Notes: generated from the letters alone by a model not told the origin. Shown: positions 1,937 to 44,289, counted from the first letter of the stretch. The stretch: 64,000 nucleotides of DNA from Eledone cirrhosa (GCA_964016885.1 OZ024751.1:17856001-17920000), one strand, 5' to 3'. Numbers and translations: made by a program.

Positions 1937-2296
1937 TTTCTTTATTTACCATAAAGGCATAAAAAGAAGGGACAAATACAAAGGGGGAGTTTACATATAA
2001 TCGAGTAAAAAGGGTGTAACATGAAAATAATCGAAAATAACCTCAAAAGGGAGGGGACGTGATGGGGGTTGCACACACCCCCGAAAAAGTGTGCAATCCT
2101 TTGCCCGGGGAGCACATGGAGAAGGTGCTCCCCATCTCCTTTACTTCTTTACCTACAGGATGGTATACAGAGAAGGCCCATTTACACGAGCCATTCTCGC
2201 CACTATCACCCACCTTTCATAAAACTGCCTGTGGCCAAGCACCTCTCTCTCCATTCTTATCCTTCTTCCGAAGTGATATCGGAAGAAGTAGACCAG
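1937..2296 (-). mobile_element. 5'-truncated diverged subfamily copy of the Tx1/L1-like LINE (ORF2 C-terminus plus 3' UTR) inside (GATA)n
   Basis: Aligns by eye to 12950-13355 (ccttcttccgaa.tgatatcggaagaa, ccattctcgccact, gcacacacccccgaaaaagtgtgcaa); GATA repeats on both sides. Confidence 0.85.
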
Positions 2297-2789
2297 ACTT
2301 TATCTATATATAGATAGATAGATAGATAGATAGATAGATAGATAGATAGATAGATCATCGTATAAAATTGCATATTCAACAAAGATCTACTTGTTTATAA
2401 ATAACAGCTATATTACATCAAGTCTTGACATCTAAAATGGTAGGTTATGTTGGCATCATAGGTTTAATTATATAATATTAAGTTATGGTCACGATTGGAA
2501 TGTCTTTTGTCATAGGTCTGTTCAATCAGACGTTGAATAACAACGATAACAACCTCATTAACCATCATCACAACCAAAAAATCGACAAGAACCATATCTG
2601 TATATATAAAAAGGAGCTCGTACATATATTTAACACATAAGTACACACATGCTCACACAAACACTGATATGCATGAAATTACACATGCATATATTATACG
2701 CACACTCTCACGTAGATATTTACACATTACACAGAAACTTTATTTAGAATAAAGCAATACTGGTCTCTTCTCTTTTACAACAACTCCTA

Positions 2790-3660
2790 TAGTCAACTAC
2801 ATATTCTGAAACTACGACCCGTCCCCTTACTAAATACCACCTTCCGTTCTGCTCACACTTTACTTTTTGTGTTACCCTTAACACATATTTTACACATACG
2901 TACACACATGCTCTCATATCGCACTGAAACTACGACCAATCTCCTTACTAATGTACACCCCTCACTTACACCCTAGTTTTTGTGTTACCCTTTACACATA
3001 TTTTATAAACACGTACACACATACTAACATATCGTTCTGAAACTACGACTCATCCCATTAAATACTCCCTATCTCACTAGCACCCAACTTTTTTTGCTAC
3101 CCTCAACACAGATAGTTTCCACATACGTACACACATGCTCACATATCGTTCTGAAACTACAACCCATCGCCTTAAAATACCCCTATCCATCTGGCACCCT
3201 ACATTTTGTGCTACCCTTAACACAGATATTTTACACATATATACACACATGATCACATATTCTGAATCTACAACTAATGCCTTTACTAATGCACACCTCT
3301 CGCTCGCACCCTAGTTTTTTGTGTTACCCTCAACACATATTTTACAAAAATGTACACACATGGTCACATATCGTTCTGAAACTACGAACCTACCCCTCGC
3401 ACCCTTCAGTTTTGTGCTACCCTCAACACAGATATTTTATACATACGTACACACATGATCCCATATTCTAAATCTCCTTTACTAATGCACCTCCACCTCG
3501 CTCACACCATAAATGTTGTGCTACTCACAACACAGACATTTTACACACACGCACGCACATACATCGTTCTGAATCTACGACCCATCTTCTTACTAATACA
3601 CCTCCCCTCACTGGCACCCTACCTTTTGTGCTACACCCTCAACACAGAAGTGAGACAGAC
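2790..3660. repeat. Diverged minisatellite, unit about 115 bp, 7-8 copies
   Basis: Recurring ctgaaactacgacc...ttttgtg(t/c)taccct(t/c)aacaca..tattttacacatacgtacacacatg. Confidence 0.85.
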
Positions 3661-3903
3661 CATAGTTTCAGCTTACAACCTAATTCCTGACACCCCACGA
3701 ACATCTCCCTACGGTCTACGACAAATCTTATGATGACCGACCACAAAACAATAGCCTTTAACACACTAGATGTAACTTTTGAGACGGCTTTATATGCAGA
3801 GAACACGAATACAGGATTATCTCCCGCTGCTGCTTCTCTATAATAATAAATATCTAAAAAAATGTCCTCTTTCAATTCCACCCCAATTTGTTGTTTCTGT
3901 TGC

Positions 3904-41156: not shown

Positions 41157-41560
41157 AAGCATGGCGTCCGACCCTCTACCGATAAGAATAATTGTTTCTA
41201 CTTTTGGCACAAGGCCAGCAACTATCTCAGCACATTACTGGTACTTTATTTTATCGACCCCGTAAGGATGAAAGGCAAAGTTAACCTCGGCGGGATTTGA
41301 AGAGGTTAACTTTGCCTTTCATCCTTACGTGTTCGATAAAATAAAGTACGAGTAATGCACTGGAATAATTGCTGGCCTTGTGCCAAAAGTATAAACAATT
41401 ATTCTTATTTTGCTTCTTAAGAATAATGGTTTCTTATTTAGGCACAAGGCCAGCAATTTGGGGAGTAGGGAGGGAAAAGTCGATTAAATTGACCCCAGTA
41501 CATTACTGGTACTTTATTTTATCGACCCCGTAAGGATGAAAGGCAAAGTTAACCTCGGAA
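41157..41560. mobile_element. Fused and inverted main-family SINE fragments
   Basis: Minus head joined to a minus tail (41157-41300), inverted plus half (41302-41402), minus long-tail half (41422-41558). Confidence 0.8.
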
Positions 41561-42093
41561 TAATGAAAATAGGAATGAGGTAAAATATGACGTGAAGAAT
41601 CAAAAATAGGAATAAGTTCAACTTAGCTGTTTTAAAGAATGAAAAACAGGAATACGATACGATATAACGTTGTGAAGAATGAAAGATATGGACTAAGATA
41701 AGATAGAAGTTATGACGTTGTGAAAAATAAAATATATGATTAAGATAGAAGATATGACTTTGTGGAAAATGGAAGAAAAGCTATGATGTTGCGAAGAATT
41801 AAATATATGACTAAGAGAAGATAAAAGTTATGACGAAGAGTAGATATGACGTCGTGAAAAATAAAATATATGAGTAAGATAGAATATATGACTGTGAAAA
41901 ACGGAAGAGAACTTATGATGTTGTGAAGAATGAAAGATAGAAGATATGATGGGGAAAATGAAATATATGACTAAGATAGAAGATATGACGCTGCGGAAAA
42001 CGAAAAATGAGTGATGATGTTGTGAAGAATGAAAGATATGACTAGGATAAGATAGAAGATATAACGAAGAATAGATATGACTAATACAAGATA

Positions 42094-43958
42094 TATTTCT
42101 TTTATTTGCCACTAGGGCATCAAAAGTGGGACAAGTACAAAGGGGGGAGTTTACACAAAAAGGCGTCCTCAATAAGGAGGAGGCAATAACAAAATATAAA
42201 AATAAAATAAGATATAACAAAAAATAAAATTTTTAACAAAATCCTCAATAGAGAGGAGGCGCCTTGGGGGGTCGCACACACCCCCGAAAAAAGTGTGCAA
42301 CCCTTCTCCTCAGGAGCACAGAGAAGGGGTGCTCCCTTGGTCTTTCATCTTCCTCACCTATAGTCTGATGTAGAGTGAAGGCCCATTCACACGGGCCATT
42401 CTCGCCACTTTCACCCATCTTTCATAGAAACGGCTGGGGTGCAGCACCTCTCTCTCCATCCTGATCCTTCTTCCGAAATGATATCGGAAGAAACGGACCA
42501 GTTGTTGGCCAGAGAGAAAGGTGCCCGACCTCAGTCCTTTCAGACGCGTCCACCATACAACCTCTTTCGCCATGGCTATTACGCACAGAAACACCGCCTC
42601 TGCTTCATCTTTGAAGGGGGGAGGCGGCTTGATCATTACAATAGACTCGGTGGTCAACCGGATCGGTCCCACCCTTGACAGCAGTTGTTCGACATAGCCC
42701 CACAGATCGGCTACGCCCGAGCAGTGTACTAATGCGTGTGCAACGGTTTCCTCGTCGCACACGCATCTGGGACAGATCTTTTTGGCGGGGTCCCTACCCG
42801 GGCGCCCGTGTCTGTAGAGCCTTTCTCGAACGGGTAAAGCCCCTCGGTAGCACTGCCAGGCCAGGGACTTCTGGAAGTTGTCCATAGGTCCCGGGCTGAA
42901 TGTCCTACCGAAAAGGCTGGCCAGTTCGTCCTCCTCCATGTCTAGGGCTTCTCCGAGGGCGTCGTCGCACCTGCTGCGTACCAGCCCTCTATAGAATGTT
43001 GCGGTGGAGTCTCCACTGATAACCGGATCCGCCTGCCAGAGGGCGGTGAGCGCCTGGGCACACTCAGTGTGCCAGGCGCCCAGTTTTCTCGGTCTTTGCT
43101 TGACCCAGGATTGCAGCTCGGTGAGTGAGACGAGTCTGGGAAAGGTTCGTCTCACAAACGAGGCCCACACCGGTTGTCCGGTGAGGAATACGTAGAGGTG
43201 CCGTAGCCTTAATGCGTGTTTACGCATCATTAGCCACGGCATCCCCAGCCCTCCTTTCGAAGGGTGTTGACAGCAGATGGATCTCCTCACCATAGGAGCC
43301 CGCCTCTTCCAAAGGAATTGGAAGAGCGCGCGCTCCATCTTGGTGAGGGTTTCCCTTGGGCAGGGCACTACGGTCAGGCGGTAGTAGATGACGGACGCTA
43401 TGTAGGTGTTCGCCACCTCCGCCCGACCTTTCAGGGATAGTTTGCAACTGGCCCACTTCTGGGTCAGTGCAAACACTCTGTTCGTAACCTCCGCCCAGTT
43501 TTTCTCCACCTGGAGGTCCGGTCCGAACCAGACCCCGAGCAACTTCACCGGGCCCTCCGTCCAGCGTCCGACGACGCTATCGGAGGGCATCGGTCTGCCC
43601 CTCCACGTGCCGAGTTGCAAACCGATCGACTTGTCCCGGTTCAGCTTAGCCCCTGTGAACTTTTCGTACTCCTCCAGTAAGGTGCCGACCGCCTCGATTT
43701 CGGAGGCCGTCGACACCATTACTGTCACGTCATCGGCGTAGGCCGACACCGCTTTCCGCAATCCCGGTTCCAAAGGGATGCCCTGCAACAACTCCAACTT
43801 CCGCAGTAGTGGCTCGAGAGTCAATACATACAGAAGGGAGGAGAGAGGGCACCCTTGTCGGATGGACCGCGCGATTTTGAACGGCTCCGAGAGGTAGCCG
43901 TTCACCTTGACCCTAGAGCAGATGCGGCTGCTGTGCATAGCAGTGATCCAGCCCCTGA
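42094..43958 (-). mobile_element. 5'-truncated copy of the Tx1/L1-like LINE with 12-bp TSD
   Basis: Nearly identical to 12948-14812; TSD TAATACAAGATA at 42082-42093 and 43959-43970. Confidence 0.95.
42358..43958 (-). pseudogene. ORF2 C-terminal half (RT YADD region and zinc finger), lacking its own start
   Basis: Protein identical to ORF2 from RGWITAM onward except one K/R change; the N-terminal MLYLLSCII of the track ORF comes from flanking DNA. Confidence 0.9.
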
Positions 43959-44289
43959 TAATACAAGATAGAAGATATAACACTGTGGGGAATGAAAGAT
44001 ATGACTAGGAGAATATATGACGTTGTGAGTAATTAAAGATTATAACTCAGAGAATATATGACGCTGTGCGGAATGAAAGATATGATTTTGTGAAGAATGA
44101 AAATATAAGAAAATATTTGACGTTTTGAAAAGTAACAACATAATAAATGATTTTGCGTTCTTTTCCGCGAAGCGTAGCCCCACACTGGCGCACCCTAGAC
44201 CCAGAGCCCATCAATCTCCCCTTCCGCTGCCCTCCCATTATTCTGTGACCCTAGAGCACTTGCCTTTTCCTTCCTTTTCCGTGTTTGAA

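Follow-up and report, generated by a model that had tools for sequence, protein, structure and literature searches.

A probable Tx1-group LINE family of the octopod Eledone cirrhosa with an apparent preference for AGATA in (GATA)n repeats and no poly(A) tail

Tx1 elements in microsatellites and the Eledone locus

Several families of Tx1 long interspersed nuclear elements (LINEs) insert into simple repeats; the text of PMC4494074 describes Kibi in (TC)n, Koshi in (TTC)n and crocodilian families in (TTCC)n or (TTTC)n. The same text ascribes Tx1 targeting mainly to the endonuclease and counts a family as target-specific when more than 20% of its flanks are of one type (PMC4494074). Microsatellite targets given in the accessible part of PMC3812793 are ACAY, AC, TC, TTC and TAA, and the targeting mechanism is there called 'not well understood' as of 2013. 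The Tx1L endonuclease is described as nicking its target specifically (PMC1950540). Here we describe a LINE family with three copies in a stretch of 64,000 nucleotides from the octopod Eledone cirrhosa (GCA_964016885.1 OZ024751.1:17856001-17920000; hereafter the window), all of which adjoin AGATA at their 3' ends and none of which carries a poly(A) tail. An initial annotation of the window had taken microsatellite-specific Tx1 families, including those for TC and TTC, to be established, and PMC4494074 agrees.

The window element, a probable Tx1-group LINE of the apurinic/apyrimidinic endonuclease (APE) type, resembles Kibi, Koshi and the crocodilian families, as they are described in PMC4494074 and PMC3812793, in its insertion into a microsatellite with a fixed orientation. 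On the same descriptions it differs from them in its (GATA)n/AGATA target, its octopod host, a shorter second open reading frame (ORF2; ~1145 aa) and the lack of an A tail; its junctions adjoin AGATA/(GATA)n rather than (TC)n or (TTC)n. The best-scoring relative that is both named and characterised is Tx1L of Xenopus laevis (P0085; 315 bits, 30% identity), which differs in its target, the Tx1D transposon, in an ORF2 of 1308 aa, in a separate clade of our tree and in the length of the endonuclease hairpin loop (11 residues; 9 in the window element). Keno-like elements inserted in U2, U1 and 5S genes (L009, L017, L117 and L018) belong to the same broad reverse transcriptase (RT) group and likewise have fixed targets, but these are RNA genes, and 4 of the 5 such elements examined end in A5-A12 (in the fifth, L012, the junction lies outside the sequence examined). 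A likeness of another kind is found in SART1Bm, for which initiation through pairing of target-like RNA bases has been proposed in the text of PMC7265360. SART1Bm and R1Bm differ from the window element in belonging to the R1 clade, and SART1 requires a long poly(A) for accurate initiation. R1Bm is said to use read-through priming.

Our literature search, which lay outside Repbase, Dfam and subscription papers, found no GATA-targeting Tx1 family. GATA and TATC occur 0 times in the text of PMC4494074 (its supplements listing Tx1 targets are not covered by this count), and the portions available of PMC8967140, PMC8869645, PMC10294476 and PMC4176376 hold no target information. In Octopus vulgaris, 13 L1-Tx1 families with 421 recent insertions have been reported (PMC13282606), and no target information for them was found in the text or supplement of that source as available. 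The window family, part of a distinct lineage without poly(A) tails, apparently combines a known behaviour, microsatellite targeting, with a target repeat that is new.

Three insertions beside AGATA

Three minus-strand copies of one APE- and RT-encoding LINE family are present in the window. The copies, the 3' untranslated region (UTR), the adjoining repeats and the target-site duplication (TSD) are as follows:

1937..2296, minus strand: copy 1, a 360-bp 5'-truncated piece of a diverged subfamily, comprising the last ~44 codons of ORF2 and the 3' UTR
1902..1936, plus strand: (AGAT)n array at the copy 1 3' junction; AGATA at 1930-1934, with GA at 1935-1936 belonging to target or element
2301..2316, no strand: perfect 16-bp palindrome at the copy 1 5' junction, in which the first 8 target bases recur inverted
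2313..2352, plus strand: (GATA)10 past the copy 1 5' end, in the orientation of the 3'-side array
12948-~18600+, minus strand: copy 2, near full-length
12948..13211, minus strand: copy 2 3' UTR; AATAAA at 12955-12960, 7 nt from the end, without poly(A)
12836..12947, plus strand: (GATA)13 twice with one interruption, adjoining the copy 2 3' end
42094..43958, minus strand: copy 3, 1.87 kb, 5'-truncated
41560..42093, continuing at 43959-44135, plus strand: degenerate AAGATA-rich minisatellite hosting copy 3
42082..42093, plus strand: copy 3 TSD at the 3' junction, 12 bp, with AGATA at its end
43959..43970, plus strand: copy 3 TSD at the 5' junction, 12 bp, followed by GAAGATA

When the junctions are read on the plus strand and anchored at TTTC, copy 1 shows AGATA-GA-TTTC and copies 2 and 3 show AGATA-TA-TTTC, such that AGATA-NN-TTTC stands in register at 3/3 3' junctions. 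Poly(A) is absent from all three 3' ends, whose sense terminus, AATAAA(A)GAAA(TA), is A-rich. Copies 2 and 3 differ by 8 mismatches in 1865 bases (99.6% identical), and copies 1 and 2 share 79% DNA identity; the junction motif is therefore common to two subfamilies. On all of these points, the shared AGATA ends, the missing poly(A) tail and the conservation of the motif across subfamilies, the initial annotation had been correct. The poly(A) tail and T-rich nick site that go with the relaxed type of the L1 clade are not found here, and the primer strand ends in AGATA. Within the window 2/3 copies lie in (GATA)n and 3/3 lie beside AGATA, as against 0/1 in a public sequence run, X5, described below.

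The three insertions are independent events, because their flanks differ and copy 3 carries a TSD and a truncation of its own. A segmental duplication as the origin of copies 2 and 3 was ruled out on the same differing flanks and separate TSD. AGATA was present in the target before insertion, because it lies within the copy 3 TSD and (GATA)n stands on both sides of copy 1. The latter is flanked by (GATA)8 and (GATA)10, both on the same strand, in accord with the earlier placement of the diverged fragment inside (GATA)n. The palindrome at its 5' junction suggests inverted target bases produced during integration. When the empty site of copy 3 is rejoined, 29/32 bases match a neighbouring array unit; the 12-bp TSD ending in AGATA had been recognised rightly at this copy, but the supposed non-microsatellite site is an AGATA-rich degenerate minisatellite. 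GATA repeats had also been assigned to both ends of the full-length copy, a claim that could not be confirmed: placing the 5' end of copy 2 would take a second full-length copy. With the LINE elements masked, AGATA occupies 0.24% of window sites, and three random sites would have some 5-mer in common with a probability of 1.1e-4 (some 4-mer, 2.2e-4).

We read these junctions, with a probability of about 0.58, as those of a Tx1-group family that prefers AGATA^GA, mostly in (GATA)n, through an endonuclease nick and priming on read-through UAUCU. The APE domain is predicted to cut the GATA-reading strand after AGATA, in a register that the copy 3 TSD (AGATA, then GA) would set provided no bases were lost. 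AATAAA stands just 4-7 nt ahead of the end of the element, and the usual spacing from AATAAA to cleavage is 10-30 nt, so that the mRNA would run on into the adjoining repeat; cleavage and polyadenylation there would leave a few UAUC units ahead of the poly(A). The freed 3'-OH end would then pair with these units and copying would begin at them, so that poly(A) would not be copied, and a second cut ~12 bp away would yield the TSD. The TA common to copies 2 and 3, which is in repeat register, may be a mutated unit from the flank of their donor. Microhomology priming of this kind fits the junction anatomy as a hypothetical step.

Coding capacity, placement and other features of the window

The coding regions of copy 2 and the sequence beyond them are arranged as follows:

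13212..16649, minus strand: ORF2, first ATG at 16649, ~1145 aa, open
16674..18566, minus strand: ORF1 open frame, with a CCHC knuckle at 17451-17492
18640..18826, minus strand: short interspersed nuclear element (SINE) between (TAA)n-like runs, in or just past the presumed copy 2 5' UTR
18827..19811, no strand: region somewhere in which the copy 2 5' boundary lies; GATA runs at 19045-19056, 19448-19463 and 19744-19811

ORF2 matches the Pfam families Exo_endo_phos (residues 31-235), RVT_1 (520-763) and, under the curated cut-off, zf-RVT (984-1040). All expected catalytic residues of the APE endonuclease are present, as are the RT motif YADD and a C-terminal zinc motif. The knuckle of ORF1 has the form CX2CX4HX4C (residues 359-372 of P0002) and aligns with the ORF1 of a sister lineage at E 7e-9. 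The ATG closest to where the ORF1 frame opens lies at 18262, beside an (AAC)n tract and in another frame; the first in-frame ATG is at 17966, and to judge from the sequence ORF1 may be broken near its start. The element thus shows the N-terminal APE, RT, C-terminal zinc motif, upstream CCHC ORF1 and TSD with 5' truncation of the L1/Tx1 group. Beyond ORF1 of copy 2 lie a (GA)n tract, AT-rich unique DNA, the SINE and the three GATA runs. No further ORF2 fragments were found in the window beyond the three copies, and seven other long window ORFs have no Pfam match.

The closest named matches to ORF2 come from Argonauta hians (62%) and Octopus sinensis (43%), and its score against Xenopus Tx1 compares with 166 bits against human L1 ORF2p. 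The RT tree that the initial annotation had called for was built from the window element, 25/91 proteins and 93 loci (with 7/38 array loci); once 4 loci with short coverage had been removed, 115 rows remained. A quick IQ-TREE run was used with Shimodaira-Hasegawa-like approximate likelihood ratio test (SH-aLRT) support, midpoint rooting and no labelled L1 outgroup. In the tree the window element falls together with the Argonauta protein and P0003 (SH-aLRT 100) inside a 20-row lineage of short ORF2s (SH-aLRT 100) on a long stem. This lineage stands apart from both the Xenopus Tx1/fish clade and the U2/U1-inserted clade, and all are contained in an 86-row group (SH-aLRT 99). The window element therefore likely belongs to the Tx1 group: of the earlier label, Tx1/L1-like, the bit scores and the 86-row group support the Tx1 identity, but the element has a lineage of its own, in a tree that is midpoint-rooted without a labelled L1. 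Among the U2-inserted elements of the tree nests L117, whose source is a bacterial metagenome-assembled genome (MAG) record; its Tx1-like element lies beside U1 small nuclear RNA genes (3036-3199 and 9961-10137), with the 3' end joined via A8 to a partial U1. At L052, a distant LINE has its 3' end after ~4950, followed by a short A tail and what appears by eye to be the 3' half of a tRNA gene, with a second tRNA-like sequence, also seen by eye, downstream.

Part of the element is present in 20 public runs; none of these is recorded as RNA, a fact without bearing on expression. Contigs of four runs were aligned to copy 3, and stretches left uncovered carry no evidential weight. Coverage was heavy and heterogeneous, with many diverged records (17,948 in X1), and no 3'-junction loose ends were present among the 24 of 1442 loose ends listed for these four runs against copy 3. 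No relatives were found in viral-contig scans, the best 80 of 477 loci from a metagenome scan were nearly all at ≤35% identity, and the octopod 3' UTR motif occurred in 0/139 loci. No convincing structure emerged when the 3' terminus and the 3' UTR were folded (z -0.9 to -1.8).

Other repeats are also present in the window. The SINE at 18640-18826 is an abundant element of ~185 bp with ~30 other matches, for example at 33021-33200, 38331-38512 and 24945-25122, and a TSD-like repeat accompanies the match at 33021. It served as a control for the junctions: ATAAT adjoins 13/14 of the matches that reach its end (31 matches in total) and AGATA adjoins none. The SINE is possibly a TAA-targeting partner of Dong-R4 LINEs. 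A repeat element of ~300 bp, interrupted or bounded by (TA)n, occurs in both orientations (5-350, 6793-7340, 35452-35704, 48600-49122 and 63487-63796), and tandem arrays with periods of ~114 and ~158 bases lie at 2861-3648 and 62006-63103.

Tail-less sister arrays and the origin of the GATA association

A sister lineage, its elements ~41% identical, was found in the MAG record CAXXMW01 (L081-L139, small contigs). A bacterial origin of these arrays was rejected, and we infer that animal host DNA was binned into the MAG. The elements are arrayed head to tail, repeating every 6.4-6.9 kb, with up to ~11 intact units. Among the 54 distinct 3' ends recognised by a search pattern, none has an A run after AATAAA, which directly precedes a linker. 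Because of this, the absence of poly(A) appears, on present sequence evidence, to characterise the lineage as a whole and not to be tied to GATA targeting; the GATA preference has so far been seen in the octopod branch only. The linkers are ~15-20 nt long and recur within each array; across 16 contigs they fall into 9 groups. The linker passes into unique DNA at two array ends and forms a TSD at the 5' end of one array, and the first units of two other arrays have no clean upstream linker. A comparable joint is found in run X5 (depth 3.6, other organism code), where an 11-nt linker separates a truncated copy from the 3' end of the next. Tandem SINEU-3/Tx1-Mar insertions, which according to the text of PMC4494074 sandwich a TSD, have the same form as the sister arrays and the X5 joint, but the SINEU elements carry poly(A) tails and share a single target, whereas the linkers of the sister arrays are locus-specific and full-length units are numerous there.

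Several observations weigh against a preference for AGATA set by the endonuclease and read-through priming. The junction sample is three, and the X5 linker lacks AGATA, with only GA fitting the copy 1 register, although this is a single low-depth contig. The sister lineage, the nearest with readable junctions, has no GATA preference; TATCT follows only 3/54 of its 3' ends, all in one array. The terminus is itself rich in A (9/11 in copies 2 and 3) and comes near the short A5 end of the U2-inserted L009. Finally, the minisatellite that hosts copy 3 contains 20 AGATA in 698 bases (2.9%), ~12x the window average. Of the claim that the family is GATA-specific, the pre-existing AGATA target stands; 'specific' is stronger than three junctions allow, given also the X5 junction and the sister lineage, and 'preferring' is the apt word.

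The alternative that survives best, though we consider it unlikely, is flank-guided homing, in which the endonuclease is no more than loosely selective, the read-through 3' flank of the RNA chooses the site through pairing, and a (GATA)n-resident master sends its progeny to (GATA)n. In its favour, the sister ends pass from AATAAA straight into the linker without poly(A), the same linker recurs between the units of an array, endonucleases of arrays with different linkers are 89-95% identical, 5'-truncated units stand behind the same linker in two contigs, and the X5 joint repeats the tandem-with-linker form. Unequal recombination could, however, also grow such arrays; elements of the sister lineage have landed at no fewer than 9 unrelated sites, which makes flank pairing dispensable; the two arrays whose first unit lacks a clean upstream linker do not follow the pattern; copy 3 has just 5 bases in common with a (GATA)n guide; and the octopod target is identical in two subfamilies 21% apart. 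A broader version, in which an invertebrate Tx1-like lineage dispenses with poly(A) priming and uses the donor 3' flank as its guide, thereby accounting for both (GATA)n homing and the sister arrays, we hold to be doubtful.

It is improbable that the link to GATA reflects a weak preference or chance, with broad insertion and a small-sample or retention effect. The sample of three, the X5 junction without AGATA and a genome rich in microsatellites (7856/64000 window bases in short tandem runs) would suit that explanation, but AGAT arrays make up 252 and AT arrays 4086 of those 7856 bases, yet 3/3 copies adjoin AGATA (P ~1e-4). That (TATC)n is instead an element-encoded tail, as in repeat-tailed LINEs, with arrays grown after insertion, is very improbable despite the long (TATC)n directly after the 3' ends of copies 1 and 2 and the element-borne TA in repeat register in copies 2 and 3, since no array accompanies copy 3, whose AGATA recurs in duplicate at the 5' junction, and (GATA)10 lies past the truncated 5' end of copy 1, which rules out such a tail as the sole source of GATA.

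If the flank-guided reading were true, target choice would be reprogrammable via the 3' end of the RNA. Under the preferred reading, a Tx1-group family favouring AGATA, (GATA)n would join the repeats targeted by APE-type LINEs, in hosts with abundant and recently active L1-Tx1 families. A young, tail-less element with an intact ORF2, together with sister elements whose near-identical endonucleases stand with different linkers, makes the question of endonuclease or RNA pairing directly testable.

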